A stretch of 44,641 nt of DNA, from positions 30,818 through 75,458 of the forward strand of contig PNAZ01000162.1 of NCBI GenBank assembly GCA_003169655.1. The letters run 5' to 3'. Shown here piece by piece: positions 175-28,118 of this stretch; within the stretch, counting starts at the first letter, position 1, and each line of letters opens with the position of its first letter. Both the position numbers and the translations under genes were made by a program. Source of the stretch: Chloroflexota bacterium (GTDB taxonomy: Bacteria; Chloroflexota; Limnocylindria; Limnocylindrales; CSP1-4). The notes below the pieces were generated by a model. It did not search any database, had not been told where the DNA came from, and was given only the letters and a program-made list of their open reading frames with translations.

Positions 175-2331
175 TCAGGCCCGGCCGGCGGTCACCTCGT
201 CGGCCCGACTCCGCCCCGACAGGAGAATCAGGTCCTCGTGGAGCTCGAACCAGACGCTGTGGAAGCTGTCGACCCTGGGTGACGCCACATAGCGCTGGTC
301 GCCATCGGCGGCCAGGTGCGCCGCTCGGTCGAGGCGAGCGGAATAGGTCGCCAGGCGCGCCAGAGACGCGACAAGCGGTGACAGCCAGCGGGCCGCATCG
401 CCGTTGAGGACAGCCAGCTCAGCGAGCACACGGGCGTCGTACGCCGGATCCGCGTGGTCGTTGAGTGCCTCCAATCCGTCGATCATGCGCATCTGCCACG
501 CGGTCACCGTCTCCTTCATCCGACGGTCGAGCACGAGGAACACCTCGAGCGCCGCGCTCGCATGTTCCCGTCCCCAGCCGTCCCGGTCGTTCGCGAGGAG
601 CTCGCTGCCAACCGCCTTGCCCGCTGGAGCGAGCCGGTAGGAACCGGTCACGAGCTCGACGAGGCGGTCGGCAAGGAGCCCGTCGAGGCATGCCGAGATC
701 TCCTCGAGGTTCGAGAACTGCGCCTCCGCCAGTCCACTGAGCGTGCCATAGCCCTTGATGGCGAGGCAGCGCAGGACGTCCTCCCGGCTGGCCAACGACC
801 CTTCTCCGGTCTCCTCCGCCGGCGGCTCGCCGGCCGGTTCCGGACGGACCTCCGCCGATCGACCCACGCCGCCGGGCTCGATGCCCAGCTCGCGGGCCCA
901 GGCCAGGAGCTTCTTCGCCTCGGGGACGATGGCGACCTTCGTGACCAGCAGACCATCGAAGATCCCGCCCGTGCTGCCGTCGATCGTGATCGGCGTCCCA
1001 AGCGCGAGCAGCCGGCCCCCGATCGAGACGCCGTCGTCGCTGACAAGCACGGCGGAGGCACCCACGACGGCGGGGATCCCCCAGCCCCGGGCGACCACGG
1101 CGGCATGACTGGCGAGGCCACCCCGGGAGGTAAGGAGGCCCGCCGCCCGGGCCATCCCATGGACGTCATCCGGCGATGTCTCGGACCGGACCAGGATGAC
1201 CGAGCGGCCCGCTTCGGCGAGCATGACGGCAGCCTCGGGCGTCGTCGCGATCTCGCCCGCGGCCACGCCCGGCGACGCGGGCAGGCCAGTGGCGAGCGGG
1301 ACGACAGCGGCGCTGCGGCCGATCGTCACCCGGGGTGGATCGGCCAGGAGGTGGCCCACGCGCTCGACTGCCTGGGCCCGCGTCAGCGGGAAATCGGCAG
1401 CCTCGGCCATGTCGACCGCGATCCGCACGGCCGCCTGCGGGCTGCGCTTCCCGATCCGGCATTGGAGCAGCCAGAGCTTGCCCTGCTCGATCGTGAACTC
1501 GATGTCGCAGACATCCCGGTGGAAGCGCTCGAGCGCCGTGGCATCGCGCGCCAGCTCACTCGCCACGGATGGCAGGCGAGCCGCGAGCTGGGCCAGCGAT
1601 TCGGTCTGATGGCTGCCCGCGACCACGTCCTCGCCCTGGGCGTTGAACATCACATCGCCGTACATCGCCGGCTCGCCGGTGGCGGGATTACGCGTGAACA
1701 ACACGCCCGTAGCTGAGTCCAGGCCGCGGTTCCCGAAGACCATCGTCTGGATCGTGACGGCTGTCCCGAGGTCGTCCGAGATACCCTCGCGCTGCCGATA
1801 GGTCCGCGCCCGGTCGCTGTTCCAGGAGCGGAACACGGCCTGGATCGCCGCCCGGAGCTGGACCCAGGGATCGTCGGGGACGGTATCGACGCCGACAACA
1901 TCCTTGAACATCTGCTCGAACCGGGTCCGGCAGTCGACCGCGAACTTCGGGCTGGCCGAGGCAGCCGCCAGGCCCCGCGTCGTCGCATCGTTCAGGCCCA
2001 GGTTGAGGATGGTGTCCATCATTCCGGGCATCGACACGGGCGCACCGGAACGAACGGAGACCAGGAGCGGGTCGGTCGGGTCGCCGAAGCGCCTGCCGAT
2101 GCGCCCCTCGATGGTCGCCATGTGTTCGCGGATCTCGGCGTCGAGGCCCTCCGGCCAGCCGCTCGCGAGGTACGCATTGCAGGCAGGCGTGGTGATCGTG
2201 AACGCCGGCGGGACCGGCAAGCCCAGGTCGAGGGCCATGACGGTCAGGTTGGCCGATTTGCCCCCCATCAGGGCCTTGAGCTCCCCGAACGGAAGCCGAT
2301 GGCGGTAGTCGCAGTCGTAGACCCAGCTCAC
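175..2331 (-). CDS. Truncated pyruvate-phosphate-dikinase-like protein (ATP-grasp nucleotide-binding domain + phosphohistidine swivel domain + unrelated C-terminal domain)
   Basis: GTG start (MSWVYDCDY...). The N-terminus resembles PPDK (LMGGKSANL, LPVPPAFTITT, DPLLVSVRSGA..SMPGMMDT). Swivel motif TSRGGLASHAAVVARGWGIPAVVG is present. No PEP/pyruvate TIM-barrel follows; the last ~210 aa are unrelated sequence. Confidence 0.85.
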   Translation of the reverse strand: MSWVYDCDYRHRLPFGELKALMGGKSANLTVMALDLGLPVPPAFTITTPACNAYLASGWPEGLDAEIREHMATIEGRIGRRFGDPTDPLLVSVRSGAPVSMPGMMDTILNLGLNDATTRGLAAASASPKFAVDCRTRFEQMFKDVVGVDTVPDDPWVQLRAAIQAVFRSWNSDRARTYRQREGISDDLGTAVTIQTMVFGNRGLDSATGVLFTRNPATGEPAMYGDVMFNAQGEDVVAGSHQTESLAQLAARLPSVASELARDATALERFHRDVCDIEFTIEQGKLWLLQCRIGKRSPQAAVRIAVDMAEAADFPLTRAQAVERVGHLLADPPRVTIGRSAAVVPLATGLPASPGVAAGEIATTPEAAVMLAEAGRSVILVRSETSPDDVHGMARAAGLLTSRGGLASHAAVVARGWGIPAVVGASAVLVSDDGVSIGGRLLALGTPITIDGSTGGIFDGLLVTKVAIVPEAKKLLAWARELGIEPGGVGRSAEVRPEPAGEPPAEETGEGSLASREDVLRCLAIKGYGTLSGLAEAQFSNLEEISACLDGLLADRLVELVTGSYRLAPAGKAVGSELLANDRDGWGREHASAALEVFLVLDRRMKETVTAWQMRMIDGLEALNDHADPAYDARVLAELAVLNGDAARWLSPLVASLARLATYSARLDRAAHLAADGDQRYVASPRVDSFHSVWFELHEDLILLSGRSRADEVTAGRA

Positions 2332-2355
2332 CTCCGTCGCCCGACCTCCGGTAAT

Positions 2356-4599
2356 CTATCCATTGCCGCCCTCTTGCAATGACCGCCAGACCCGCTCCGG
2401 CGTCAGGGGCAGGTCCCGGATCACCGTCCCCGTCGCCTCGTGCACGGCGCCGGCGACTGCGGCCGAAACGCACAGGAGGGCTCCCTCGCTCATCCCTTTC
2501 GAGCCATATGGCCCCGGGCCATCCTCGTTCTCGACCATGTCACTGAGAAGCTCGAGCGGCAGGTCCATGCTGGTCGGGATCCGGTAGTCGATCGCGCCCA
2601 GGTTCCGGATCCGGCCCGATCCATCGAAGATGTAGTGCTCCATCAACGTGTGACCCAGGCCCATCACGGCAGCGCCCTCATCCTGCATCCTGACCTGGAG
2701 CGGATTGAGCGCCTTGCCGACATCGGAGACGGTGACGTGCCGGACCAGCACGATGTCGCCGGTCTCCCGATCGACCTCGGCCTCGATCGCCGTGCAGTTG
2801 AACTCGAAGAATGCGACGGAGCCACCGAGCGGATGGCCGGGATCGCCTTCCTTGCGCATCTCGCCGTTCCCGATCAGCTCGCCGCCCAGCGGCCCGAGGC
2901 CGGGCTTCAGGACGTCGACGATCGGGACCTCGCGCCCCGGCAGAAGGACGACCCCGTGCTCGACAGCGATCTCCGACGGGTCAATCCCTTCCAGCCGGGC
3001 AGCCATCGCGCGTACCTTCGACTGGATGTCGCGGCAGGCGTCCAGGACCGCGTTGCCCATCAGCACGGTCGATCGGCTGGCCGAGGTCTGCTGGTCATAC
3101 GGCACGACGGCGGTATCGCCCATCACCACGGTCACCCAATCGAGTGGTGCGCCCAGCTCGTCGGAGGCAATCTGGGCCAGGATCGTCCGTGCTCCCTGGC
3201 CCATGTCCGAGGTGCCCGCGAAGACGATGACGCTGCCGTCGGCCAACAGCCGAACCGTCGCGTAGGACAGTCCGGTCGTCGGTCCGGACTTGATCCCCAC
3301 GGCGATGCCGCGACCGCGGCCCGGTGGCAGCGGGGTCCCCCAGCCGATCAGCTCGGCGGCCCTGCGGACCACTTGCTCCCAGTGGCCATCGGCCGGGGTG
3401 TCGAATGGGATGAAGGCTTCGCCCAGACGAGCGAGGTTCAGCAGCCGGAGCTCGAGCCGATCGATCCCGAGGGCCAGGGCCCCGGCGTCGATATTCGACT
3501 CGACAGCCCAGTTGACCTGTGGCGCGCCGAAGCCACGGAAGGCGGTCGAGGGTGTCGTGTTGGACAGGATGCTCCGTGCGGTGATCCGCGCCGCGGGTAC
3601 GCGGTATGGTCCGCAGCCCGGGTAACTGCCTTTGCCGACCACTCGATCGGCGATGTCCGCGTACGCGCCGATGAGGTAGTCGGCGGCGATGTCCTGGAAT
3701 GCGAATGTGCCATCCGAGTGGAAGCCCGTCCGAACCCTGATCTTCGCGGACGCTCGGCGGGCCGCCTGGAAGGTTTCCTCGAGGGTGAGGACCAGGCGTA
3801 CCGGCCGGTCGGCCCGGAGTGCCATCAGGGCCACGAGCGGCTCGTACTTGGCGTGCTGCTTGCCGCCAAAGGCGCCACCGGGGTCCGGCGCATGGACGCG
3901 CACCTTCGCGAGCGGCAGCCCGAGGATGTCCGCCAGCACCTTCTGCAACCAGTTCGGGTGCTGGATCGAGCTCCATACGGCGATTCCGTCGCCATCGGGC
4001 GCGGCCATGAACGCGTGCGGCTCGATGGCGAAGTGGGTCACCATCGGGAACTCGTAGGTATGTTCGATGACGAGATCGGCCTGGGTTGCCTCGACATCAC
4101 CCCAGCCGACGAGGTGCTCGCGCAGGACATTCGTCGCGGCGAGGTTGTCGCCCGGCCGCAGGGCCGCGTCCTGGACGAGGGGCGCAGCGGGGTCGAGTGC
4201 CCCTTCGATCGTGAAGACGGCGGGCAGCTCCTCGTACTCGACCTTTACCAGGCGGGCCGCTTCATCGGCCGCATCCCGGCTGTCTGCGGCCACCGCGGCG
4301 ACGGGTTCGCCGTGGTACTTCGTCTCACCGACCGCCAGCACCGGCCGGTCCTGGAACTGGGGGCCGAAGCGCGGGACCGGCTGGGGCAGGTCAGCGGCGG
4401 TCATCACGAGGCGGACTCCCGGGACCCGTTCAGCCGCACTCGTATCGATCGACACGATCCGGGCCCGGGCGCAGTCGAGGGTCACGAGCTTCGCATGGAG
4501 GATATCGGGCAGGCGGATGTCGGCGACATAATGCTGGAGCCCGGTGACCCGCCCCCGTCCTCCGACGCGCTGTGGCGAGGCCCCGACCCGACCGATCAT
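2356..4599 (-). CDS. Molybdopterin-binding large subunit of a xanthine dehydrogenase / aldehyde oxidase / CoxL-family hydroxylase
   Basis: ATG at 4599 (MIGRVGASPQRVGGRGRVTG...) overlaps the small-subunit stop as ATGA. Family motifs: AFGGK, TAFRGFGAPQ, MGQGARTILAQIA, GSKGMSEGAL. The 1111-aa track ORF is a spurious 5' extension. Confidence 0.9.
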   Translation of the reverse strand: MIGRVGASPQRVGGRGRVTGLQHYVADIRLPDILHAKLVTLDCARARIVSIDTSAAERVPGVRLVMTAADLPQPVPRFGPQFQDRPVLAVGETKYHGEPVAAVAADSRDAADEAARLVKVEYEELPAVFTIEGALDPAAPLVQDAALRPGDNLAATNVLREHLVGWGDVEATQADLVIEHTYEFPMVTHFAIEPHAFMAAPDGDGIAVWSSIQHPNWLQKVLADILGLPLAKVRVHAPDPGGAFGGKQHAKYEPLVALMALRADRPVRLVLTLEETFQAARRASAKIRVRTGFHSDGTFAFQDIAADYLIGAYADIADRVVGKGSYPGCGPYRVPAARITARSILSNTTPSTAFRGFGAPQVNWAVESNIDAGALALGIDRLELRLLNLARLGEAFIPFDTPADGHWEQVVRRAAELIGWGTPLPPGRGRGIAVGIKSGPTTGLSYATVRLLADGSVIVFAGTSDMGQGARTILAQIASDELGAPLDWVTVVMGDTAVVPYDQQTSASRSTVLMGNAVLDACRDIQSKVRAMAARLEGIDPSEIAVEHGVVLLPGREVPIVDVLKPGLGPLGGELIGNGEMRKEGDPGHPLGGSVAFFEFNCTAIEAEVDRETGDIVLVRHVTVSDVGKALNPLQVRMQDEGAAVMGLGHTLMEHYIFDGSGRIRNLGAIDYRIPTSMDLPLELLSDMVENEDGPGPYGSKGMSEGALLCVSAAVAGAVHEATGTVIRDLPLTPERVWRSLQEGGNG

Positions 4600-5069
4600 C
4601 GCCGGCCAGCCTCCGCCGTCGCGAGGATCGCCTGGGTGATCTGCTGATAGCAGCCGCAGCGACACAGGTTCCCGGCCATCCCCTCCTCGATCTCGGCGAT
4701 CGTCGGATGGGCGCTGGCCTGGAGCAGCGCATGGGCCGAGATCACCTGGCCAGGGATGCAGAAGCCGCACTGGACCCCGCCTTCGTCGAGGAACGCCTCC
4801 TGGATCGGAGTCAGCCGACCCCCGGTGGCCAGGCCTTCGATGGTCGTCACCACCGCGCCGTCCGCTTCGACGCCGAGCATCAAGCACGAGTCCACCGTGC
4901 TCCCGTCGACGATGACCGTGCAGGCACCGCACTCCCCCACGAGGCAGCACTCCTTGGCCCCGGTCAGCGCCAGGTCGTCGCGCAGGACGTCCAGGAGCGT
5001 GTGCTGTGGCGCGACCCGCAGCGAGCGGCTGCGCCCGTTGACGGTCACCTCGATTGGAATCGTGGTCAT
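4596..5069 (-). CDS. [2Fe-2S]-binding small subunit of the Mo hydroxylase (CoxS/XdhC-small type)
   Basis: Cys clusters CLVGECGACTV, CGFCIPG and CRCGCY. ATGA overlaps on both sides. Confidence 0.92.
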   Translation of the reverse strand: MTTIPIEVTVNGRSRSLRVAPQHTLLDVLRDDLALTGAKECCLVGECGACTVIVDGSTVDSCLMLGVEADGAVVTTIEGLATGGRLTPIQEAFLDEGGVQCGFCIPGQVISAHALLQASAHPTIAEIEEGMAGNLCRCGCYQQITQAILATAEAGRR

Positions 5070-5938
5070 CCTGGCGCTCCCCCTCCAGCCAGCCGATCGA
5101 GTGCGATCCCGACAGCGCGGCGACCGAGAACGCGCAGCATTGCGCGGCGGTACTCGGGACTGGCGCGCATCGACCCGGCTGATGGGCTGGCGGTCGCGAA
5201 CAACTCCTCGAGCACGGCGCCTTTCGCGTCGTCGTCCGCGGCGTCATCTGCCAGGACCCCCGAGCTGTCGACGGCGAGGACGGGCCGGGGCCCGACACTA
5301 CCGAACGCGAGGCGAGTGACTCCGGCTGCGTCGACCAGGCAGGCCAGGGTGACCGAGGCAAGGTCGTGACCGCGTCGACGAGTCCGCCGGAGATGGACCG
5401 AACCAGTCCGTTGGGTGGGCAGCGGCAGCTCGATCGCCATGACGAGTTCTCCGCGCCGGAGTGTGGTCTCGCCGGAGCGCACGAAGAAGTCCCTGATCGG
5501 GATCCGGCGGCTCCCGGCGCTGCCAATCGCGACGACCTGCGCACCGTACACGAGCAGCGCCGGGGCCGTGTCGGCGGCCGGCGACGCGTTGCAGATATTG
5601 CCGCCCAGGGTCGCCCGATTCCGGATCTGGACCGCGCCGACGACGGCCGCCGCCTCGGCCAGGGCGACGAAATGGCGGCGCACTCGCTCATCCGCCGCGA
5701 TCTCGCTCATCACCGTCGTGGCGCCGATCGTCAGCCGGCCGGCCTCCTCGCGGATGACCGGCCGCAGTTCAGGGATCCGCTTGACATCGACCACGATCGT
5801 TGGCTGCAGGCTGCCGTCCCGCAGACGGATGATCAGATCCGTGCCACCGGCCAGCAAGCGGCAGTCGGAACCGCCTGACTCGAGGGTCTTGAATGCCTGC
5901 GCGAGTGTGGCTGGCCGGCTGTAGGCAAAGCTCCTCAC
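5066..5938 (-). CDS. FAD-binding medium subunit of the Mo hydroxylase (CoxM type)
   Basis: GTG start MRSFAYSRPATLAQAF... is a typical CoxM N-terminus. LLAGGTDLII FAD motif. Overlaps the small-subunit start. Confidence 0.88.
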   Translation of the reverse strand: MRSFAYSRPATLAQAFKTLESGGSDCRLLAGGTDLIIRLRDGSLQPTIVVDVKRIPELRPVIREEAGRLTIGATTVMSEIAADERVRRHFVALAEAAAVVGAVQIRNRATLGGNICNASPAADTAPALLVYGAQVVAIGSAGSRRIPIRDFFVRSGETTLRRGELVMAIELPLPTQRTGSVHLRRTRRRGHDLASVTLACLVDAAGVTRLAFGSVGPRPVLAVDSSGVLADDAADDDAKGAVLEELFATASPSAGSMRASPEYRRAMLRVLGRRAVGIALDRLAGGGAPG

Positions 5939-5954
5939 GTTCCGTGGATCCGGC

Positions 5955-6842
5955 TCAGAGGACCTTGTCGACCTCGTCCATCAGCACCTGCGGGGTGGCT
6001 GCGCGGACGAAGTAGTAGGGGCGCTCGCTGAAGCGTGCCACGAACCCGGCGCGGGCCTTCCGAAGCGCATCGGTATCGACGATGGGCATCGGCTGACCAG
6101 GCGCGAGCAACTCGTTGAGGAGGAAGTAGTTCTGGACAGAATGGAGCGTCTGGAATTGACGCTCGAACGGGATCATCTGGACACAGCTCGGGTCGAAGTT
6201 GCCATCGATCGCCGGCACGACGACGACGTCGACGACACTCGGTTCGGCATGGAAGGTCCAGGTCGGCATCTCGCCGAAGAACTTCTCCACCGCCCGGTTC
6301 GGAGCGGCCTTGTCCGCCCGCTCGGTGCCCTCGGTGCGTTTCTTGAGGAACGGCTCCCGGGAGCCTGCGACCACCAGGCCTGCCTCATCGACGACGGTCG
6401 TCTCGGTCGACACCAGGAGTGCCCCGCGGCGGCAGGCCTCGATCTGACCCATGCTCTTGCCGTGGTTCGACTCGCCACCCAGGAACAACACGGTCCTGTC
6501 GCCATAGCGGACCGCGGAGGCGTGGAAGGGATGGAGACCGACGGCCTCCATCCGGAGCGCGAGCATGGTCACCACGACTTTCTGGATCGGCCCGGCCGGC
6601 CATGGTCCGCTGAAGTGCATCGCCCGTCCGTCGTAGGCGATGGATCGCTCGCCGTCCTGGCGCCACACGATGTCCGGCTCTGGCAGCGTAACCTCGGGCG
6701 AGATCCGCACGTCGGCGAGGCGGTAGTTGAGAAATGTCAGATCCTCGAGCACGTGCTCGCGCGGTTCGCCGCCGTAGACGTCGACCCGCAGCCGCGCGGC
6801 CCCGGCCGACATCTCCTCGGTCAGTTGCAGGTCGCCGTTCAT
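5955..6842 (-). CDS. HPr-kinase-C-terminal-like P-loop protein (function unknown)
   Basis: I start it at ATG 6842 (MNGDLQLTEE...), just downstream of the transaldolase stop. The 345-aa track ORF would overlap transaldolase. FLGGESNHGKSMGQIEACRRGALLVSTETTVVDE resembles the HprK P-loop and the following RGH.LV.DD segment. Confidence 0.6.
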   Translation of the reverse strand: MNGDLQLTEEMSAGAARLRVDVYGGEPREHVLEDLTFLNYRLADVRISPEVTLPEPDIVWRQDGERSIAYDGRAMHFSGPWPAGPIQKVVVTMLALRMEAVGLHPFHASAVRYGDRTVLFLGGESNHGKSMGQIEACRRGALLVSTETTVVDEAGLVVAGSREPFLKKRTEGTERADKAAPNRAVEKFFGEMPTWTFHAEPSVVDVVVVPAIDGNFDPSCVQMIPFERQFQTLHSVQNYFLLNELLAPGQPMPIVDTDALRKARAGFVARFSERPYYFVRAATPQVLMDEVDKVL

Positions 6843-6855
6843 GGATTCCCTTCGG

Positions 6856-7965
6856 TCAGCCGGGCTTGGTTTCCGGGTCGGGCAGGACCACGTCACGGAT
6901 CGCCCCGACGAGGTCGTGGTAGGACTTGATGAAGCCGCGCAGCGTCCTGACCGTCGCTCCGTAACTGTCGAACTCGTCGACCGCGAGGCCATCTGGCTCG
7001 AACGCCCGTCCGAAGTCCGGGATCCGCGTCAGCAATTCCTTGATCGTGCCCAGGTCCACCGGCTCGTCGATGCGAGCCACCGGCGAGATCCCGCTGCCGT
7101 TGAAGCGGACCTGCCAGGCATGCGGGATGGTCAGCGCCAGGTCGCCACCAACGAACTCTGTCCAGTGGAGGCGGTGGCGATAGGCCGCGACGAGGAGCCG
7201 CGTCCGGTATGAGCGCTCGTTGAACAACCCGTAGGCGCGTTTGAAGGCTGCGATGCCGGCCCAGTTCAGGACGTCCGGATGGATCGCGATTCCGTCGCGC
7301 TCGACCAGGATCCGCATCCAGTCGTCGAGGCGTCCGACCATCAAAGTGCAGACCGGGGTCATGGCCGCGACATCGCCACCCCGAGCAGCCAGCGCATCGA
7401 GGCCTCGCTCGACGGCTTCCGCCACGGCGAGGGCCTGCGCGACGGTGAAGCACACGGTGGCATTGATGTTGACGCCCGCTGCGGTTGCCAGCTCAATCGA
7501 CTGGATCCCTGCCCGGCTGGCCGGGAACTTGACCTGGATGTTCGGGGCGAGGCCCGCGAACCGGATGCCCTGCTCGAGCATGCGCTCAGCATTCGGGTAG
7601 TTCTGGGGGTTCGTCTGCAGCGACAGCCGGCCCTTGCGTCCGCCCTCGCGCCGGAAGACCGGCTCGAGGATGCTCGCGCCCCGAACCGCCATCTCCTCGA
7701 TGATCGCCCAGGTGAGGTCCATCTCGGTCCAGGCCGGATTCTCGACGGCGAGCTGGCGGATCCGTGGGATCCAGTGCGCCTTCTCGGCCCGGAGCACATC
7801 GAGCACGATGCTTGGATTGGAGGTGGCGCCGGACGCGCCTCGAGCGAGCGCATACTCGAGCTCGGCGACGGCACACGAGTCATTCCAGTAATCGGTGGGC
7901 GTGTCGTCAGTCATCCGGAGCAACGGGCTGTCGACGAAGCTCTGCAGCACGGGGGCGGTCATCAT
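6856..7965 (-). CDS. tal: Transaldolase-family protein
   Basis: GATSNPS motif and Schiff-base lysine context IQVKFPAS. SD GGAGGA lies upstream of ATGATG at 7965. Confidence 0.85.
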   Translation of the reverse strand: MMTAPVLQSFVDSPLLRMTDDTPTDYWNDSCAVAELEYALARGASGATSNPSIVLDVLRAEKAHWIPRIRQLAVENPAWTEMDLTWAIIEEMAVRGASILEPVFRREGGRKGRLSLQTNPQNYPNAERMLEQGIRFAGLAPNIQVKFPASRAGIQSIELATAAGVNINATVCFTVAQALAVAEAVERGLDALAARGGDVAAMTPVCTLMVGRLDDWMRILVERDGIAIHPDVLNWAGIAAFKRAYGLFNERSYRTRLLVAAYRHRLHWTEFVGGDLALTIPHAWQVRFNGSGISPVARIDEPVDLGTIKELLTRIPDFGRAFEPDGLAVDEFDSYGATVRTLRGFIKSYHDLVGAIRDVVLPDPETKPG

Positions 7966-8013
7966 GTTCCATCCTCCGGCTTCAGCACTGCAGCTGGGTC
8001 TGGGTCGAGTATA

Positions 8014-8026
8014 ATCGATTATCGAT
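8014..8026. promoter_or_regulatory. 13-bp AT-rich palindrome ATCGAT-T-ATCGAT in the divergent tal / ABM promoter region (candidate operator overlapping -10-like elements)
   Basis: Sequence read directly. TATAAT at 8010-8015 overlaps it on the plus strand. GATAAT lies on the minus strand ~50 nt upstream of the tal ATG. The same 12-mer recurs at 28938-28949. Confidence 0.45.
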
Positions 8027-8080
8027 GGCTTGCCAATCCGAGCCGACCACCTGGGAACCTCCGACTTCGAGGCGAGACGG

Positions 8081-8371: not shown

Positions 8372-8387
8372 GCTGACCAGGGCATGA

Positions 8388-10198: not shown

Positions 10199-10873
10199 GT
10201 GGCAACTGCTCGAGCACTCTCCCGCAGCGTGCTCGGCGAGCAGGTCAAGGATCGCATCCTCGAGGGGATCCTCCGGGGCGACTATCCCCCCAACGCTCGG
10301 ATCGTTGAAACGCAAGTCGCACGCGAGCTCAACACCAGCCAGGCCCCGGTCCGGGAGGCCCTCCGCGCTCTCGAGGCCCTCGGCTTCGTCGAGATCACGC
10401 CATTCAAAGGCGCCCGGCTGCGCAGGCCCACCCGCCGCGAGATCCTCGAGGCCTACGCCGTCCGCTCTGCGCTCGAGTCGCTCGGTGCGCGCTCGGCCGT
10501 GCCAGGCATGACCCAGGCCGGGATCGACGAACTCGCCGGGTACTGCGAGGCGATGCACGCGGCGGCCGAGGCCGGCGACGGCCACGGCGTGGCCGAGGCA
10601 GATGCCAGGTTCCACGGCCGGCTCCTGGAGATGGCCGACAACCGCACCCTGGACAAGGTCTGGCGCTCGCTCGAGCCGTTCCTGCGGACGTACATCACGC
10701 TCGTCGTCCCGGGAGCCGATCCGCGCTGGTCGGCCGAACTCCACGCTCCCATCCTGGCGGCCGTGAAGCGCCGCGATACCGAAGCGGTCGTAGCGGCACT
10801 CGAGCGGCACTTCGTCGAGGCGAGCGCAAACATGGCTCGGCGCTGGCCGGATGGCGACCTTCGGGGTGGTTGA
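10199..10873 (+). CDS. GntR-family transcriptional regulator, FadR/FCD subfamily
   Basis: wHTH segment VKDRILEGILRGDYPPNARIVETQVARELNTSQAPVREALRALEALGFV plus a helical FCD-like C-terminus. GTG 10199 has a strong AAGGAGG 6 nt upstream. The alternative ATG 10184 overlaps the previous stop. Confidence 0.88.
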   Translation: MATARALSRSVLGEQVKDRILEGILRGDYPPNARIVETQVARELNTSQAPVREALRALEALGFVEITPFKGARLRRPTRREILEAYAVRSALESLGARSAVPGMTQAGIDELAGYCEAMHAAAEAGDGHGVAEADARFHGRLLEMADNRTLDKVWRSLEPFLRTYITLVVPGADPRWSAELHAPILAAVKRRDTEAVVAALERHFVEASANMARRWPDGDLRGG

Positions 10874-15535: not shown

Positions 15536-16324
15536 TCAGCGCTCCGGCATCGCGCCGAATGTCCTCTCGATGTCGTCGAGCAGCCGCAGCGTCGACTCGA
15601 CCAGGACATCGAGATAGCGCTCGCCGAACTCCGGCGTCGCCGCACGTGGATCACCCCAGGTGCCCGATTGGGTGGCGCGATGGACCGAGCCGGGCGTCGA
15701 GAAGAAGAACGCCGTGTGAACCGGGCCCGGACTCGTGACCTCGGGCAATGGCGGGAACTCGGCGTTCGCCAGGTCCATGTCGACGAGTGCCGGATTGATT
15801 GCGAGGATCGCCGAGGTCTCGCCGAGATTGGCATGCAGGCCCGTCCCCGGGTCGAAGAACTCGGCGGCCTCCGTCGCCGTCATTCCGTCCCAGTAGTTGA
15901 TCGGAAAGGCCCGCACGCCAGCGGGTATCCGATCGGCCGCATTGGCGCAGGCATAGGCGATCGCGTACGTGTTGTCGTAGTGGCCATTGAGGAAGATCAC
16001 CCGCCTGAATCCCACCGCCGCCAGGGACACGCACAGATCCTCGACGAGCGCCATGAAGGTCGGGATCCGCACGTGCACGACCCCGGTGAAACCCACGTGC
16101 GGATAGGACAAGGCGTAGTTGATCGACGGCGCGACCACGGCACCAAGCCGCGGCGCGATGCGACGGGCGACCTCCTGGGGCACCAGGACGTCGGTCAGGA
16201 GCGGGGCATGCGGACCGTGTTGCTCGGTCGAGCCGGTCGGCACGATCACGGTCTGATGGTTCTTGAGGAACGCTTCGACCTCGAGCGTGGTCATCTCGCC
16301 CAGGAACACCGTGGCGGGCTTCAT
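15536..16324 (-). CDS. Creatininase-family amidohydrolase
   Basis: ATG 16324 has AGGAGGAGG upstream. Motif PTGSTEQHGPHAPL and FLNGHYDN are typical of the creatinine amidohydrolase family. Confidence 0.85.
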   Translation of the reverse strand: MKPATVFLGEMTTLEVEAFLKNHQTVIVPTGSTEQHGPHAPLLTDVLVPQEVARRIAPRLGAVVAPSINYALSYPHVGFTGVVHVRIPTFMALVEDLCVSLAAVGFRRVIFLNGHYDNTYAIAYACANAADRIPAGVRAFPINYWDGMTATEAAEFFDPGTGLHANLGETSAILAINPALVDMDLANAEFPPLPEVTSPGPVHTAFFFSTPGSVHRATQSGTWGDPRAATPEFGERYLDVLVESTLRLLDDIERTFGAMPER

Positions 16325-16404
16325 CGCGATCCGTCCTCCTCCTGATCTGGATCCTTCGTGGCCTGTTCGGGCGCGGCTCAGCGCCGCCTTCAGCGGTTCG
16401 AGCT

Positions 16405-17526
16405 TCAGCGAGGGGCGATCCACTCCCCTTCGCGAGCGACGCGGACCACGCCCAGGCGGTCGTCCAGCTCGACCAGGTCGGCTCGCTGGCCGACCGCGAT
16501 CCGACCGCGATCGGTGATGCCCAGCAGCGCGAGTGGATTGCGGCTCGCGGCCGCCACGGCATACGGCAGCGTGAGCCCCGCCTCGACGAGATTGCGCAGC
16601 GCACTGTCGAGGGCGATCACGCTGCCCGCCAGGATGTGGGTCCCGGCCAGCGTCGCACGGCCGCCGAGAACGTCCACTTCGAGCCCCCCGATGGCCGTCC
16701 GTCCATCGCCCAGCCCCGCCAGCGGCAGCGCGTCGCTGACGAGGACGAGCCGGCCGGCGGGCTTCAGCCTGGCAACGATCGGCCAGAGCGCCGGATGGAC
16801 GTGCTGGCCATCGGCAATCAGCTCGACAAAGACGGCGTCGTCGAGCAGTGCCGCGACGGCCAGTCCCGGGGCGTGATGATCGACCCCCGACATCGCGTTG
16901 AACAGATGCGTCGTCGAGCGCGCGCCCGCGCTGTAACCGGCTCGTGCCTGGCCCACGGTCGCGGCGGAATGCCCCAGCGACGCCACGATCCCGTTCGCAC
17001 TCAGCCAGCGGATCAGGTCGAGGCCTCCCTCGACCTCGGGCGCCAGGGTCATCACCCGGAGGCCCGGAAGCAACCCGAGGATCGCCGCCTGGGGCACCGT
17101 GGCGGGAAGGGCGATGAACGCCGGATTCTGGGCGCCCTTCCGGTCGGGCGAGATGAACGGTCCCTCCAGGTTGAACCCGAGCGCCTGCGCGCCATCCGCC
17201 GGTGAATCGGGCAGCCAGTCCCGGACGCGCTCGGCGAACGCCACCAGGGCGCCGAGCGGGGCGGTCACGGCCGTCGGCAGGAACGAGGTCACTCCGTGGC
17301 GGAGGAGCGCTCGGGCCATCCCGTCGAGGTCGGTCCGTGCGCCCATGGCGTCGTAACCGCCCCAGCCGTGGACGTGCAGATCGACGAAGCCTGGCGCGAC
17401 GAACGGGCCGTCCCGCTCGGCGTCGTCGGGCTCGATCGCGGCGATCCGGCCGTCCTCGATGGACAGGCGACCGGGGACGATCGAATCGTCCAGGATCAGC
17501 CTGCCGCCGACCAGCAGCGCGGTCAC
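16405..17526 (-). CDS. nagA: N-acetylglucosamine-6-phosphate deacetylase-like amidohydrolase
   Basis: GFVDLHVHGWGG, GFNLEGPFISP, HLFNAM and the overall NagA length. GTG start. Confidence 0.85.
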   Translation of the reverse strand: MTALLVGGRLILDDSIVPGRLSIEDGRIAAIEPDDAERDGPFVAPGFVDLHVHGWGGYDAMGARTDLDGMARALLRHGVTSFLPTAVTAPLGALVAFAERVRDWLPDSPADGAQALGFNLEGPFISPDRKGAQNPAFIALPATVPQAAILGLLPGLRVMTLAPEVEGGLDLIRWLSANGIVASLGHSAATVGQARAGYSAGARSTTHLFNAMSGVDHHAPGLAVAALLDDAVFVELIADGQHVHPALWPIVARLKPAGRLVLVSDALPLAGLGDGRTAIGGLEVDVLGGRATLAGTHILAGSVIALDSALRNLVEAGLTLPYAVAAASRNPLALLGITDRGRIAVGQRADLVELDDRLGVVRVAREGEWIAPR

Positions 17527-17557
17527 CGCGGAACCCGGCGTCCAGGCGGGCGCACCG

Positions 17558-18490
17558 TCACGTCGCCGCTCGTTCGGCGGCGTGCACTGCAGCGCCGATC
17601 GCGCCAGCCCACGTCCCGAGCTCGGCCCGCACCAGCGCGACGTCCTCGATGGAGGTGGTCCTGACCCGACGGGCGATCTCGGCGCGGATCGGCGCGAACA
17701 GCAGCTCGCCCGCGGCCGCGACGCCCCCGCCGACGACGATCCGATCCGGTGAGATGACGGTGATCATGTTGGCGATCCCGATCCCCAGGTACCGGCCGAC
17801 GTCAGCGAGTCCGGCGCGCGCCCGCTCGTCGCCGGCCTGTGCGGCGCGGACGGCCTCCTCGGCGGTCGCCGTCCCGCAGGCCGCCGCAATCTGGTCGGCC
17901 CGCGCGTAGGCCTCCAGGCAGCCCCGGTTCCCGCAGTGGCACCATGGGCCGTCCGGATCGATCGTGTGGTGGCCGATCTCGCCGGCCGTGCCGTCGTGGC
18001 CCTCATGGACGCGGCCGTCGATCGCGAACACGCCGCCGACGCCCGTCCCCAGCGTGAGCCCGACCATCGACGAGGCGCCCCGTCCGGCCCCCAGTCGCAA
18101 CTCGGCCAGCCCGAACGCCCGAGCATCGTTGACGAGGAACGTGGGCAGGCCGACGGCAGCCGAGACCGGGCCGGCCACCGGCTGGCCCGCCCAGTTGCCG
18201 GGGAGATTCACCAGGAACCGCGTCGTGCCCGTGGCAGGGTCATACAGCCCGGGCACCCCAATCCCGATCGTGAGGGCCGGTCCGCACTCGGCGATCGCGG
18301 CGGCGGCCACCTCGGCCAGCTGGGCGACGACCGTGTCGGGCACGGCAGCGGGGTCGGCCACGACCCGGGTCGGCACCTGGTCGGTCGCCACGGTGGTCCA
18401 GGAACCGCTGGCCTGCGCCACCACGGCCCACTTGAGGTTCGTGGCACCGAGGTCGAGACCCAGATGACGGGTTGCGAGCCCCTGGATCAT
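17558..18490 (-). CDS. ROK-family sugar kinase
   Basis: LGLDLGATNLK N-terminal ATPase motif, GEIGH, and Zn motif CHCGNRGCLEAYA. Confidence 0.88.
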   Translation of the reverse strand: MIQGLATRHLGLDLGATNLKWAVVAQASGSWTTVATDQVPTRVVADPAAVPDTVVAQLAEVAAAAIAECGPALTIGIGVPGLYDPATGTTRFLVNLPGNWAGQPVAGPVSAAVGLPTFLVNDARAFGLAELRLGAGRGASSMVGLTLGTGVGGVFAIDGRVHEGHDGTAGEIGHHTIDPDGPWCHCGNRGCLEAYARADQIAAACGTATAEEAVRAAQAGDERARAGLADVGRYLGIGIANMITVISPDRIVVGGGVAAAGELLFAPIRAEIARRVRTTSIEDVALVRAELGTWAGAIGAAVHAAERAAT

Positions 18491-18517
18491 CGTGTCAATC
18501 CCCTCCGCCGGCGTCGC

Positions 18518-19516
18518 TCAGGACTCTGTTGTGACACGGGTGTAGGCGGCTGCCACGGCGACGATGATCGAACCGAACAGGATCTGGCGGACGGCCTCCG
18601 GGTAGCCCAGCGACGTCAGCAGCGAGCTGAGCACCGTGAGAATGAGCGCCCCGACAATCGTCCCGGCGAAGCCGCCCCGGCCTCCCATGATCGACGTCCC
18701 TCCGATCACCGCCGCCGCCACGGACGGAAGGACATACGAGTCGGCGAGCGACACGCTGGCGGTGTTGGTCAGGCCGGAGATCAGGAACCCGGCGGCCGCC
18801 GCCAGGAGCGCCGAGACGACGTACAGCACGATCAGGATCTGCCACGACCGGGCCCCCGACAGGCGCGCGGCGACCGGGTTGTCGCCGATCGCGTACAGCA
18901 GGCGGCCGTAGCCGGTCCGCCTGAGGCCGACCAGGATGATGGCGGCGAGGGGCACGAAAACCACCAGGCTGTACGGGAGGATCTTGGCCAGGGTCGAGGA
19001 TCCCACCGTCCGGAACTCGCCGGGGATGCCCGTTGAGGTCGTGATCGTCTGGAGCTGCCAGAAGTTCACCAGGCCGAGGACGACCAGGCTCATGCCCAGG
19101 GTCATGATCAGCGGATGCACCCGGAAGACGCCAACGCCGATGCCGCTGACGAGCCCCGCGAGCGCGGCCGCGACGAGCGCGATGACGATGCCCGTCGGCA
19201 CTCCCGAGCCGGCCGCGAGTGACGCCACGACGAAGCCTGCCATCGAGGCGACGGCACCCACCGAGAGGTCGATCCCGCCGGTCAGCATCGTCAGCGTCTG
19301 GCAGCCCGCCAGGATCGCCAGGGGCACGGCGGCCCGCAGCATGATCCCGATCCATTCGGGCCCGACGATGCCCGGGCGGACGATCTCGCTGGCGACGACC
19401 AGGACAGCGAGGAGGGCCAGCAGTGGAATCATCGGCCGGTCAGAGAAGAGGCCGCGCCAGGCGGCCGTGCCGAGCCAGGGGCTGCGCGCTCCCGAGGTGC
19501 CGGCGACGCCTCTCAT
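18518..19516 (-). CDS. Sugar ABC transporter permease (ribose/xylose type)
   Basis: Multi-TM protein with the TGGIDLSVGA motif of RbsC-like permeases. ATGA overlap with the upstream permease. Confidence 0.88.
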   Translation of the reverse strand: MRGVAGTSGARSPWLGTAAWRGLFSDRPMIPLLALLAVLVVASEIVRPGIVGPEWIGIMLRAAVPLAILAGCQTLTMLTGGIDLSVGAVASMAGFVVASLAAGSGVPTGIVIALVAAALAGLVSGIGVGVFRVHPLIMTLGMSLVVLGLVNFWQLQTITTSTGIPGEFRTVGSSTLAKILPYSLVVFVPLAAIILVGLRRTGYGRLLYAIGDNPVAARLSGARSWQILIVLYVVSALLAAAAGFLISGLTNTASVSLADSYVLPSVAAAVIGGTSIMGGRGGFAGTIVGALILTVLSSLLTSLGYPEAVRQILFGSIIVAVAAAYTRVTTES

Positions 19517-20517
19517 CCCCGCGCCCGCCGGATCTGGACGATGCTGCCGATCATGACCACTCCGATGAGGATGAGCCCCTGCAGGACGGTTGCCAGGTTG
19601 GTGTCGACGTCAAGGAAGGTCATGTCGGTCCGGATGATCTGCAGGATCATGACCGCGACGATCGGACCGAACACGCCGCCCCGGCCGCCGGCGAGGCTGA
19701 CCCCGCCCAGGACGATCGCGGCGACGCTCATGAGCGTGTACGGCCCGGGGACAGGCGTTCCGATCCCGGTGCTCGCGGTGAGGGACAGTCCGGCCAGCGC
19801 CGCGAACAGGCCCATGAGGGCGTAGGCAAGGATCCTCGTCCGGCCCACGGACACGCCGCTCCGGAACGCCGCCAGCCGGTCGCTGCCGACCCCGTAGATC
19901 GACAGGCCGAGCCTGGAGCGCCGCACGGGGATCCAGATGAGGGCCACGACGGCGACCAGCACGACCGCTGGCTTGGGGATCCATTCGTTGCCGATCGATC
20001 CGGTGACCAGGTCCTTGAGCCACTGCGCCGCTCCGCCCCCCGGCGAGTCCGCGACGAGCAGCGCACAGCCGGCCCACACGAACGACATCGCCAGCGTGAC
20101 CACGATATCCGGCACCCGGGTGACGACGGCCAGCCCGCCGTTGACCGCCCCGAGCAGGAGGCCGAGGACGAGCACACCCACGACCACGGCGACGTCGAAT
20201 TGCTCGGATTGGCCCGCCATCAGGGTGGCGGAGACGACACTGATGAGGGCCATCATCGAGCCGATCGAGAGGTCGATCCCACCCGAGATGACGACAATCG
20301 CCTGGGCGACGGCCGCCAGGGCGAGGGGCAGCACCGAGATGGCGAGGCCCTGGATGCCGGGCACGCCGTAGTTCGGCTGGATGAGCTTGGTGAAGACGAG
20401 CAGGAGGGCGAGGAACCCGAGGAGGCCGAGGATCCAGGCGTTGCGCCGCGCCGACGACCCGAGCAGGCCGGCGAGGGCAACACGGCCGGAGTCGACCGGG
20501 GCAGTCGCGGCGCTCAT
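19513..20517 (-). CDS. Sugar ABC transporter permease (ribose/xylose type)
   Basis: Multi-TM protein with the SGGIDLSIGS motif. ATGA overlap with the ATPase gene. Confidence 0.88.
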   Translation of the reverse strand: MSAATAPVDSGRVALAGLLGSSARRNAWILGLLGFLALLLVFTKLIQPNYGVPGIQGLAISVLPLALAAVAQAIVVISGGIDLSIGSMMALISVVSATLMAGQSEQFDVAVVVGVLVLGLLLGAVNGGLAVVTRVPDIVVTLAMSFVWAGCALLVADSPGGGAAQWLKDLVTGSIGNEWIPKPAVVLVAVVALIWIPVRRSRLGLSIYGVGSDRLAAFRSGVSVGRTRILAYALMGLFAALAGLSLTASTGIGTPVPGPYTLMSVAAIVLGGVSLAGGRGGVFGPIVAVMILQIIRTDMTFLDVDTNLATVLQGLILIGVVMIGSIVQIRRARG

Positions 20518-22112
20518 CGGTCGGCCTCTGGCCCGGTGGGTCTGGCGGCCGGCGGATCCGCCGGTACCACGACCGCCGCCTCGACCGCGGTCGCTTCGGC
20601 CACGATCTGTTCGGGCATCAGGGCACCCGACCTGAGGTTGTAGGCCGCATGCAGCAGCGCGGCCTCGTCCGCGTTCGCGGCGCCGATCTCCGCGACCACG
20701 CGGCCGCCGAAGATCACGATAGCGCGGTCGCAGACGAGCTGGACCTCCTTCAGCTCAGAGGTGTAGAAGAGGACAGCGGCGCCAGCCTCCGCCAGATCGC
20801 GGAGCAGCACGTAGATCTGGTTCTTGGTGCGGATGTCGATGCCGCGGGTGGGGTCGAAGCAGAGCATCGTGCGCACCCCGCCGGCAACCCAGCGCGCGAT
20901 GGTTACCTTCTGCTGGTTACCGCCGGACAGCCGGCGCACCTCGCCGTGGGCACGAGTGTCGATCTGCAGCGTCGCAATGGCGCGGTCGACCTTGCGGTGC
21001 TCGTCGCCGGCGTTGATCAGGCCCCAACGCCGGATCCGGGCCGTGAACGGAAGAGCGATGTTTTCCCGGACCGAGCGCTGCATCAGGAGGGCCTCGGCAC
21101 GGTCGGCGGGCACATAGACCAGGCCGGCCCGGATGGCATCGGCGGGGTGGTGGAACGAGACAGGCGCACCGTCGACGAGCAACTCGCCGCCACTTGGGCG
21201 TTGGGAGCCGGCGAGGATGTCGAACAGCTCGTCCTGGCCCTGGCCCTCGAGCGCCACCACACCCAGGACCTCACCCGGATAGAGATCGAACGATACGTCG
21301 CTGAGCTTCGTCCCAGAGCTCAGGTCGCGGGCCGTCAGACGCGCTGTGGCGCCGGACGCCCGCGCGGCCGCCGCCCTCCGTTCCGCCGCCGTGGGCATGT
21401 CCACGACGCCCTCACCCAGCATGAGCTCGACGATCCGCTCTTCGGAGCCCTCGGTAACGTCGACCACGCCGACGGTCTCGCCCTCGCGCAGCACCGTCGC
21501 GCGGTCGCACACGGCGGCGATCTCGATCATCCGGTGCGAGATGAAGATGACCGAGCGGTCGCCGCCGCGCTGACGGCCGATGACCTCGAGGACACGCTCG
21601 GTCAGGTTCGCGGGCAGAGCCGCGGTCATCTCGTCGAGCATGAGCACGTCGGGCTCGATCGCGAGGGCACGGGCGAGGTCAATGATCCGGAGCGAGGCCA
21701 GCGGCACGCGCCGCGCGATGCTCGACAGATCGAGATCCTCGAGGCCGAGCTCATGGAGCCAGTGGCGGAAGGGCTCGAGGGGCGTCTCCGTGAGGCGCAG
21801 ATTGGACCGGATGTCCAGGTCCGGGACGAGTGCCGGCTCCTGGTAGATGGAGACGAGACCGCTGCGACGGGCCTCGGCCGGCGAATGGACGGTGCGCGGC
21901 CGGCCATGCACCGCGATCGTGCCGCCGTCGGGCCGAACCGCTCCGGTCAGGATCTTGACGAGGGTGCTCTTGCCGGCGCCGTTCGCGCCCATCAGCGCAT
22001 GGACCTCGCCCGGACGCACCGCCAGGGACGCACACTTCAGCGCGACGACCGCGCCGTACGTCTTGGAGATGCCCGTGGCTTCGAGCAGGAGGCCGGTGGT
22101 GGTGAGGGTCAT
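20514..22112 (-). CDS. Sugar ABC transporter ATP-binding protein (tandem ABC domains)
   Basis: ATG 22112 (MTLTTTGLLLEATGISKTYG...). Walker A GANGAGKST, LSGGNQQK signature, and a degenerate second domain as in RbsA/MglA. The 598-aa track ORF is 5'-extended. Confidence 0.9.
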   Translation of the reverse strand: MTLTTTGLLLEATGISKTYGAVVALKCASLAVRPGEVHALMGANGAGKSTLVKILTGAVRPDGGTIAVHGRPRTVHSPAEARRSGLVSIYQEPALVPDLDIRSNLRLTETPLEPFRHWLHELGLEDLDLSSIARRVPLASLRIIDLARALAIEPDVLMLDEMTAALPANLTERVLEVIGRQRGGDRSVIFISHRMIEIAAVCDRATVLREGETVGVVDVTEGSEERIVELMLGEGVVDMPTAAERRAAAARASGATARLTARDLSSGTKLSDVSFDLYPGEVLGVVALEGQGQDELFDILAGSQRPSGGELLVDGAPVSFHHPADAIRAGLVYVPADRAEALLMQRSVRENIALPFTARIRRWGLINAGDEHRKVDRAIATLQIDTRAHGEVRRLSGGNQQKVTIARWVAGGVRTMLCFDPTRGIDIRTKNQIYVLLRDLAEAGAAVLFYTSELKEVQLVCDRAIVIFGGRVVAEIGAANADEAALLHAAYNLRSGALMPEQIVAEATAVEAAVVVPADPPAARPTGPEADR

Positions 22113-22134
22113 CGGTCCGGTGTGGAGAAGAAGC

Positions 22135-22166
22135 GCGGGGGATGCCGGAGAACCGGCATCCCCCGC
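22135..22166 (-). promoter_or_regulatory. Perfect 14-bp stem / 4-nt loop hairpin between the binding-protein and ATPase genes (intra-operon attenuator or mRNA stabiliser)
   Basis: GCGGGGGATGCCGG-AGAA-CCGGCATCCCCCGC read directly. On the transcript it is followed by GCUUCUUCUCC. Confidence 0.55.
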
Positions 22167-22189
22167 CTGACTTGACGATCTGGGGGAGT

Positions 22190-23371
22190 CTACTCGCCCG
22201 GGCCCTTGCAGCCCGCGGGCGGGACGGCCTGGGCAGGGGTGTACGTGGTCCAGCCGTCGATCGTGATGCCGAGCGGCCAGGACGGGTCGGGCAGCGTGAC
22301 GGCCAGCCAACCCTTCAGCTGGGCCTTGCCGGCATCGGTCAGGTTGTCGACCGCGATGGGGTCCAGCAGGACGGTGTTGGGCTTGGCGCCCGCCGTGGGC
22401 GTGACGGTTGTGCCGTTGAGCAGCTTGAGCGCCAGGTTGACGCCCGCGCCGCCGACGGCGGCCGTGTTGGTGACCGCGACGCCCTTCAGGCCGGGGTAGC
22501 CCACGGGGTCGAGGAGCTGCTTGATGAACGAGCCGCGGTCGGTGCCGACGATCGGCACGTACGGCTTGCCGGCGGCCTTGATGGCGTCGACGACTTCAGA
22601 GTCGATGCCCGACGTCCAGATACCCTGGATCGTGTCGTACTGGCCACTGGCGATGAACTCGTTGGCCAACTTGGTGGCGGTCGGCGGGTCCCACCCGGTT
22701 GCGACGCCAGCGGCCGGGACGACCTTGATGCCCGGGTTCTCGGCAAGGGCCTGCTTGAAGCCGATATCGCGGTCGTCGTCAGCCGGGTTGCCGGCGATCC
22801 CGCGCATGTAGTAGACGGTGCCCGTGCCGTTGAGCTGCTTGAACAGCCAGGTGGCGCCCAGGTAGGCGTACTTCACCTGGTTGTTGTAGAGGTTGTACGT
22901 GTTCGGGTCGGTCACGTAGGCATCGACCGAGACGGTCTTGATGCCGGCGGCCTGCGCCTCGACCAGAGCCGGGTTGAGGGCCGCGGGGTCGTTCGGGTTG
23001 AAGACGATCGCGTTGACGCCCTTGGCGATCAGGTCACGGATGTCCTGGAGCTGGCCCGCGGCGTCCGTGTTGCGACTGGTCACGGTGATCTTGGAGACCT
23101 GGCCCGACGAGAGGGCCTCCGCCCGTGCGGTGCACAACTGCTCCTCGCGGAAGCCGTTGCCCACGCCACCACCGTTCGAATAGCCGATCGTGTACGTCTT
23201 GGCCGGGGCAGACGGTGCTGCTGCGCTGGACGACGGGGCGGCCGCGGAAGTTGGGGCGGCACTGGCTGGTTGGCTGGCTGCCTGGGTGGCTGCCGAGCTG
23301 GAGCACGCTGCCGCGACGACCACGACCGTGGTCAGTGTCGCGATCGCGCGCACGATTCCGGAATGTTTCAT
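22190..23371 (-). CDS. Sugar ABC transporter substrate-binding lipoprotein
   Basis: Signal peptide with lipobox VVAAAC, an Ala/Ser/Pro linker, then a periplasmic-binding-protein type I pattern. GGAGGAG SD. Confidence 0.88.
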   Translation of the reverse strand: MKHSGIVRAIATLTTVVVVAAACSSSAATQAASQPASAAPTSAAAPSSSAAAPSAPAKTYTIGYSNGGGVGNGFREEQLCTARAEALSSGQVSKITVTSRNTDAAGQLQDIRDLIAKGVNAIVFNPNDPAALNPALVEAQAAGIKTVSVDAYVTDPNTYNLYNNQVKYAYLGATWLFKQLNGTGTVYYMRGIAGNPADDDRDIGFKQALAENPGIKVVPAAGVATGWDPPTATKLANEFIASGQYDTIQGIWTSGIDSEVVDAIKAAGKPYVPIVGTDRGSFIKQLLDPVGYPGLKGVAVTNTAAVGGAGVNLALKLLNGTTVTPTAGAKPNTVLLDPIAVDNLTDAGKAQLKGWLAVTLPDPSWPLGITIDGWTTYTPAQAVPPAGCKGPGE

Positions 23372-23464
23372 GAGAACTCAACTCCTCCATTGACCGGCCG
23401 CCGATTCGATTGGTCACGGGCGGCTCGGGATTGACGGTGTGGATCCGAGGGACCCATCGCTTGC

Positions 23465-25065: not shown

Positions 25066-25087
25066 CTGGGGCTCCTGTGTCGGGACG

Positions 25088-26002: not shown

Positions 26003-26004
26003 CG

Positions 26005-27207: not shown

Positions 27208-27209
27208 GA

Positions 27210-28082: not shown

Positions 28083-28118
28083 GGGTTGTCGCTCCTTCAT
28101 GTTCCGAGCTGCGTGTGG

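Follow-up and report, generated by a model that had tools for sequence, protein, structure and literature searches.

The sequence ATCGAT-N-ATCGAT is likely the operator of an FCD-type GntR regulator encoded at positions 10199-10873 of the DNA studied here, a stretch of 44,641 nucleotides from a Chloroflexota bacterium (the window). The motif is conserved in relatives, it remains linked to the GntR gene and to a set of target genes, and it overlaps promoter-like hexamers. The initial annotation of the window had proposed that two gene clusters share a common operator. This proposal is supported by a footprint found in 24 of 24 orthologous loci and by a linkage that persists through rearrangements.

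An exact search of the whole window found the 12-mer ATCGATTATCGA at 8014-8025 and at 28938-28949, with no third copy. The G+C content of the window is about 69% throughout, and the claim that an AT-rich 12-mer occurs twice in GC-rich DNA is thus confirmed. The two sites are as follows:

8014..8026, no strand: operator O1, ATCGAT-T-ATCGAT, a perfect 13-bp 6+1+6 dyad in the middle of the 115-bp gap between tal and the ABM-domain gene
28938..28950, no strand: operator O2, ATCGATTATCGAG, which reads CTCGATAATCGAT towards the SDR gene and is one base off the dyad

O1 is the perfect 6+1+6 palindrome that had been reported at 8014-8026; its centre is at 8020, while that of the gap is at 8023. O2 requires a correction, as it ends in G and is one base short of a full palindrome. 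The half-site ATCGAT is itself a palindrome, and therefore the whole site is both an inverted repeat and a 7-bp direct repeat. An RNA hairpin was rejected as an explanation: a 6-bp stem with a 1-nt loop is impossible, and conservation of the motif is at the DNA level and holds for either orientation of the genes. When the window was scanned with a position weight matrix (PWM) built from all sites, O1 was its top match (27.4 bits) and O2 its second-best (23.0 bits). The scan gave no sites in the window beyond these two; the third-best match, at 10913, scored 13.1 bits and lies within a cupin gene. Under Markov models of order 1-3, the expected count of ATCGATTATCGA in the window is 2-3e-3, and it is the sole recurring 12-mer with at least 8 A/T in the window. 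At least one repeated 12-mer of that AT-rich kind (at least 8 A/T) was also present in 9.5% of dinucleotide shuffles of the window, and the window statistics alone are therefore only suggestive.

O1 separates two sets of genes, annotated with Pfam and NCBIfam:

175..7965, minus strand: operon under O1, five genes
6856-7965, minus strand: transaldolase-like gene (tal), start at 7965
5955-6842, minus strand: P-loop protein of unassigned family, 295 aa, with the P-loop-like motif GESNHGKS
5066-5938, minus strand: FAD subunit
2356 to about 5073, minus strand: fused Fer2-Moco (molybdopterin) hydroxylase, xanthine-dehydrogenase family
175-2331, minus strand: truncated PPDK-like protein, 718 aa, without the PEP/pyruvate domain, passing NCBIfam NF004531
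8081-8371, plus strand: ABM-domain gene, first gene of the plus operon
8388-10187, plus strand: PEP-utilizer protein (PEPut), 599 aa, with only a PEP-utilizer mobile domain, at the C-terminus
10199..10873, plus strand: GntR-family regulator of the FadR/FCD subfamily, third gene of the plus operon and candidate binder

The ABM, PEPut and GntR genes appear to form one plus-strand operon that starts from O1, with GntR in third place. The nearest models to PEPut are PRK08296 hypotheticals, rifampicin phosphotransferase and PigC/RedH. The protein of 5955-6842 had no match in Pfam, NCBIfam or the PDB. It was considered as a hidden DNA-binding protein and set aside, having no family match and carrying GESNHGKS; because of this motif it is more likely kinase-like. 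An odd enzyme set, namely the PPDK-like protein (175-2331), the P-loop protein (5955-6842) and PEPut (8388-10187), stands beside the Moco hydroxylase, and it looks like an uncharacterized pathway of ATP-dependent activation and hydroxylation. A second, paralogous molybdenum-hydroxylase operon follows the GntR gene:

10895-15410: second Mo-hydroxylase operon, with ABM 15117-15410, FAD 14169-15110, Fer2 13676-14272, two Moco-domain genes and cupin 10895-11281

No site was found in the promoter gap of this second operon (15411-15535), nor in the 93-bp gap before the binding-protein gene.

O2, 34 bp ahead of the start of SDR, heads a long run of genes, annotated with Pfam:

15536..28904, minus strand: operon under O2, 13 genes with gaps of at most 93 bp
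28119-28904, minus strand: SDR, head of the run, start at 28904
27210-28100, minus strand: MBL-fold hydrolase, second in the run
next in the run: GFO/IDH/MocA oxidoreductase, xylose-isomerase-like TIM, DeoC-type aldolase, SIS
next in the run: sugar ABC transporter (4 genes), ROK kinase, amidohydrolase
15536-16423, minus strand: creatininase-family gene, end of the run

The 13 genes are presumably read as one transcript, and no regulator gene is found among them. Of all the genes in this run, only the SDR-MBL pair is consistently tied to the motif in relatives.

We then turn to the relatives themselves. The GntR protein was scanned against one genome per species, which yielded 24 orthologous loci with 65-86% identity; two further matches were unrelated. 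All 24 loci came from Chloroflexota or Candidatus Limnocylindrales MAGs of peat, permafrost and soil. ATCGAT-N-ATCGAT was perfect in 22 of these loci and had one mismatch in the other 2, and it was always located in the gap ahead of the GntR-containing operon, whatever the gene order. In a motif-anchored alignment the 12 specified bases were invariant in 23-24 of the 24 loci, with both halves equally conserved, while the centre base was free (G in 12 loci, C in 6, T in 5 and A in 1). The only other informative columns were TA..AT(A), immediately to the left, and TGCC(A/C), 18-23 nt to the right; in terms of the promoter scan described below, the left block matches the -10 and the right one the reverse complement of the -35. 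Columns beyond about -6 and +23 were at background, and no other conserved motif was visible in these promoter gaps. As phylogenetic footprints go, this is a textbook one for the site of a dimeric DNA-binding protein within a promoter. Two loci of one project, L013 and L014, share the same sequence around the motif and are filed as an Acidimicrobiales MAG and a Chloroflexota MAG, respectively; one of them is probably mis-binned.

A profile of 17 GntR orthologues found 523 metagenome relatives, from which 80 further loci were retrieved. A copy with at most one mismatch was present upstream of the GntR operon in 31 of the 32 metagenome loci having at least 2.4 kb of upstream sequence. No copy was found upstream of the GntR gene in L090, within 2.5 kb of upstream sequence, or in L088, L089 and L104, within 1-1.3 kb. 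In total, 102 non-redundant loci (860 kb) contained 54 perfect copies, where 0.12 were expected, and 46 one-mismatch copies, where 3.0 were expected. A chance origin of the motif is excluded by these counts. Every locus was retrieved via the GntR gene, and so the co-occurrence of motif and GntR is partly built into the sampling. Within the approximately 860 kb sampled, near-perfect copies were essentially confined to the promoters of this gene set. Three one-mismatch copies (L008:1607, L010:1590 and L017:1425) fall within coding DNA and were discounted as chance matches.

The metagenome loci include a second clade of GntR paralogues with 61-67% identity (L092-L099, L102, L103), in which the motif stands 60-200 bp directly upstream of the GntR gene. 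One contig, L098, carries both paralogue types. The genes in the loci of this clade (L096:8977-15500, L098, L099, L106) encode a cupin and a split transketolase, an aldehyde dehydrogenase, tal, a PEP-hydrolase-like protein and DUF1097. Extra copies of the motif precede the cupin/split-transketolase operon, tal and the PEP-hydrolase-like gene, at -10 or start-site positions. Triple arrays of ATYGAT-like hexamers with a 7-bp period were seen at L096:8860-8879, L089:9091-9110, L099:6864-6883 and L106:9993-10012; in these the central hexamer is perfect and the outer two are degenerate. At L100:2143-2174 there are two perfect dyads 19 bp apart. The arrays and doubled dyads suggest alternative registers or higher-order binding in some genomes.

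Synteny maps were drawn by tblastn with the window proteins, as crude gene calls based on GC3 made ORFs too long and wrongly assigned some sites to coding DNA. In the commonest gene order, tal is read away from the motif on one side and PEPut-GntR-Ploop-FAD-Fer2-Moco-PPDKlike on the other, followed by convergent SDR-MBL genes that are read from a second copy, motif 2. The adjacency of PEPut and GntR is kept in nearly all loci. In L001, PEPut is absent and the motif directly precedes the GntR gene. The block of P-loop, FAD, Fer2, Moco and PPDK-like genes comes after GntR on the plus strand in most of L004-L024, and behind tal on the other strand in the window and in L001-L003; this rearrangement leaves all the genes under the same operator. 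Motif 2 reads CTCGAT(A/T)ATCGAT towards SDR and is found before SDR-MBL wherever these form their own unit; a copy lies upstream of SDR orthologues in eight loci (L006, L007, L008, L016, L018, L021, L023 and L024). Where SDR-MBL has no copy of its own, it is located behind tal under motif 1 (L012, L017, L020, L083, L086), and in L019 and L064 it is directly at motif 1. Thus, SDR-MBL is still at the motif after several independent rearrangements, and the target set stays attached to it. The creatininase-family gene in L015 has its own one-mismatch copy. In L004:7141-8073 and L016:528-1199, where the long tal is absent, a short TAL/FSA-type aldolase gene lies on the other strand next to the motif. 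It is a possible non-orthologous replacement that would keep an aldolase in the regulon.

Both window copies had been described as lying in divergent promoter gaps. Both are indeed intergenic, but relatives do not keep the divergence at O2: they differ in the gene that lies beyond the motif, and a divergent promoter at O2 therefore lacks conservation support. In the window, the far side of O2 (29046-30582) contains a small ORF, a GNAT gene and a DHDPS-family gene. Elsewhere, the far side of motif 2 is occupied by a DHDPS-family gene (L007:19237-20178), by an alanine racemase gene (L016:12597-13895 and L018) or, in others, by the 3' end of a cupin gene. In several relatives, it is the cupin end of the second Mo-hydroxylase operon that abuts motif 2.

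The protein that would bind these sites is probably the one encoded beside O1. The product of 10184/10199-10873 matches PF00392 (GntR winged helix-turn-helix, E 3e-12) at its N-terminus and PF07729 (FCD, E 9e-27) at its C-terminus, and so carries both domains of the subfamily. Its closest solved structures are GntR/FCD regulators, the nearest PDB entry being 7XP0; a literature search on this entry gave no relevant paper. The start at 10199 given by the initial annotation looks right, as a GTG codon sits there five bases after AAGGAGG. In the 17 orthologues, numbered from the ATG at 10184, the recognition-helix region T51-E64 is invariant, which fits an invariant operator. D140, H144, H187 and H209 are likewise invariant; they are putative metal ligands of the FCD domain, in which an Asp or Asn and three His are expected in a D-x3-H / H / H pattern. 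This GntR gene is the only regulator gene conserved in the neighborhood. A site upstream of the regulator's own operon was found in 24 of 24 genome loci and in 31 of 32 metagenome loci, its link to this operon and to co-localized targets holds across rearrangements and in the paralogue clade, and the site is short, A/T-rich and made of two half-sites, like a FadR/FCD operator. The comparative linkage, with no other conserved regulator, argues strongly for the FadR-type protein as the binder, as had been proposed from the window. The window encodes one more GntR protein:

37840-38889: second GntR protein, 349 aa, with an N-terminal GntR winged helix-turn-helix and a C-terminal region without a Pfam match

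This second protein was rejected as the binder, as no relative of it was found in any of the 106 loci fetched.

The site could also be a genuine operator whose binder is encoded elsewhere, for example a global carbon-catabolite regulator, while the local GntR protein recognizes something else. The motif departs from the GntR-family GT/AC consensus (PMC4494728), the linkage is partly circular owing to the GntR-based sampling, and there are a few GntR loci without an upstream copy. A remote binder is nevertheless unlikely. The motif accompanies the GntR gene in each of three arrangements: ahead of PEPut-GntR, ahead of GntR alone (L001) and 60-200 bp upstream in the paralogue clade. The same promoter gaps show no other conserved motif. 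In the sampled DNA, near-perfect copies stay almost entirely with the promoters of this gene set, and the stray one-mismatch copies checked are in coding DNA.

To place the operators relative to promoters, both gaps were scanned for sigma-70-like consensus; the hits are consensus matches only, and the promoters and start sites are predictions. The scan gave exactly one sigma-70-like site per gap, both on the minus strand. These sites and a plus-strand -10 are listed here:

8036..8008, minus strand: predicted tal promoter, -35 TTGGCA (8036..8031), 17-bp spacer, -10 TATACT (8013..8008)
8010..8015, plus strand: predicted -10 for ABM-PEPut-GntR, TATAAT, ending in the two bases with which O1 begins
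28978..28949, minus strand: predicted SDR promoter, -35 TTGACC, 18-bp spacer, -10 TATCCT, about 0 expected in shuffles

The tal promoter has 10 of 12 consensus matches (about 0 expected in shuffles), and O1 fills 13 of the 17 bases of its predicted spacer. Its flanks TGCC(A/C) and TA..AT are partly conserved in loci with tal on this side. For the plus strand, the equivalent -10 in relatives is CATAAT or TATCAT, and no recognizable -35 was found for this promoter at O1. The initial annotation had pointed to TATAAT (8010-8015, plus) and GATAAT (8022-8017, minus); both hexamers are present, but TTGGCA-17-TATACT is the better minus-strand promoter. At O2, the last two bases of the SDR -10 TATCCT are the first two of the operator, and TTGAC(G/C)-N17/18-TAT(T/C)CT is kept in 7 of 9 SDR promoters. 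The register between -10 and operator is alike on the plus strand at O1, at O2 and at L096:11987, while at L096:15074 the operator sits 5 nt downstream of the predicted -10. The operator thus overlaps a predicted sigma-70-type promoter at tal and at SDR, and on the plus strand at O1 it overlaps a -10 only. Four metatranscriptome runs from the same studies contained no reads over 5900-10900.

We infer from these positions that the regulator would act as a repressor. A GntR/FCD dimer would bind the 13-bp dyad, with one winged helix-turn-helix per ATCGAT half-site. At O1, the bound dimer would fill the -35/-10 spacer of tal and, at the ABM-PEPut-GntR promoter, cover the -10 end and the start site; a single dimer would thereby shut both promoters. 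Occupancy of O1 would also repress the regulator's own gene, i.e., autoregulation. At O2, with a geometry matching that of the plus-strand promoter of O1, the dimer would cover the start site together with the final two bases of the -10, thereby blocking the SDR-MBL-sugar operon. A small-molecule effector bound by the FCD domain would release the repressor, and both clusters would be induced together. Since the putative metal-site residues Asp/His/His/His are kept in the FCD domain, this effector is probably a carboxylate or some other oxidized intermediate from the encoded pathway.

Two other readings start from the same promoter positions. In the first, the conserved element is the promoter element itself: an alternative sigma factor site, or an unusual extended -10 or discriminator. 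The motif always overlaps or abuts -10-like hexamers, and its being AT-rich in a GC-rich genome is typical of core promoter elements. We consider this reading very improbable. Two-fold symmetry, a free centre and equal halves are the signature of a dimeric protein rather than of asymmetric sigma contacts. The register, too, varies from one promoter to another: the motif is in the spacer at tal and at the -10 end at PEPut and SDR, and at L096:15074 it lies 5 nt downstream of the -10. Moreover, doubled and tripled arrays exist (L100, L096, L089). In the second reading, GntR binds the site and acts as an activator or a dual regulator. The plus-strand promoter of O1 has no -35, as is sometimes the case for activator-dependent promoters, but at every predicted promoter the site overlaps the -10, the start site or the spacer, which is the classical position for steric repression. 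Most characterized FadR-subfamily regulators of catabolic operons are effector-released repressors, and we give an activator only a very slight chance here. Finally, that the two window copies are a functionless chance repeat of an AT-rich word has a negligible probability: some repeated AT-rich 12-mer does occur in 9.5% of shuffles, but the perfect copies far exceed expectation (54 against 0.12) and keep their positions at orthologous promoters while the flanks are randomized.

Assuming repression by the local GntR protein, the pair provides a testable regulator-operator link in a lineage of peat, permafrost and soil Chloroflexota without cultured or genetically tractable members. It ties two clusters 21 kb apart into one functional unit, and this helps to decode an odd enzyme set that comprises a Mo hydroxylase, PPDK-like phosphotransferases, a transaldolase-like enzyme and sugar-uptake genes. 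A broader view can be offered only tentatively. More than 500 GntR relatives appeared in the metagenome scan, and the operator may mark the regulon of an uncharacterized catabolic pathway found widely among Limnocylindria-type Chloroflexota of soil and peat; its regulator may represent a distinct specificity class (GA/TC) of the FadR subfamily. The pathway would then consist of the Mo hydroxylase, two PEP-utilizer/PPDK-like phosphotransferases without a PEP/pyruvate domain, the P-loop protein, the tal-like enzyme, SDR and the MBL-fold hydrolase; the sister clade would add the split transketolase, the aldehyde dehydrogenase and the PEP-hydrolase-like protein. The recognition code would lie outside existing protein-DNA correlation maps. 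The site is an example of a FadR-subfamily operator that keeps the geometry and not the GT/AC core, which makes it useful for models of DNA recognition by winged helix-turn-helix proteins, and automated regulon prediction that requires the GT/AC consensus would miss it.

The operator pattern of the GntR family is NyGT-Nx-ACNy, and that of the FadR subfamily is TKGT-N3(2)-ACMA (PMC4494728). The motif TCGA-TNA-TCGA has GA...TC in place of the canonical GT...AC core, and family precedent does not predict it. NanR and BioR are listed as exceptions to the GT/AC pattern (PMC4494728); since such exceptions exist, the missing core lowers the typicality of the site without excluding the family. We found no paper that joins ATCGAT with GntR and operator, nor a description of the motif, in the literature searched, and there is no ATCGAT-N-ATCGAT site in the available portion of the supplementary site tables of PMC4494728.

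Compared with the operators of FadR-subfamily regulators such as LldR, PdhR, GlcC, DgoR and ExuR, the arrangement is alike in having a local, apparently self-regulating GntR/FCD gene inside a catabolic cluster. The site shares the frame T.G....C.A, in which the half-site G and C are 5 nt apart and the outer T/A are kept. It also overlaps the core promoter, as these operators do, and a single central site serves a divergent pair; central single sites in divergent gaps have been reported where one site regulates both operons (PMC4494728). Some of the loci studied here have additional adjacent half-sites at a distance of about 7 nt, and extra half-sites 7-12 nt away have been described for GntR sites (PMC4494728). 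The differences are GA...TC for GT...AC, half-sites that are themselves palindromic, and a host from an uncultured Chloroflexota lineage. BioR, of the GntR/FadR subfamily, offers a likeness at the family level: its operator TTATMKATAA (PMC4494728) is also an A/T-rich palindrome without GT/AC and serves a local repressor, while its sequence, length and regulon (biotin) differ. E. coli NanR, with its (GGTATA)3 operator (PMC8012715), is likewise a GntR/FCD repressor, and its repeats resemble the hexamer arrays of some relatives. The NanR repeats, however, are asymmetric, direct and bound by three dimers, whereas here the two-hexamer dyad is basic and triple arrays are exceptional. These comparisons are best read as pointing to a locally encoded repressor-operator pair of the FadR subfamily that is non-canonical in its half-site and would otherwise be an ordinary local gene switch.
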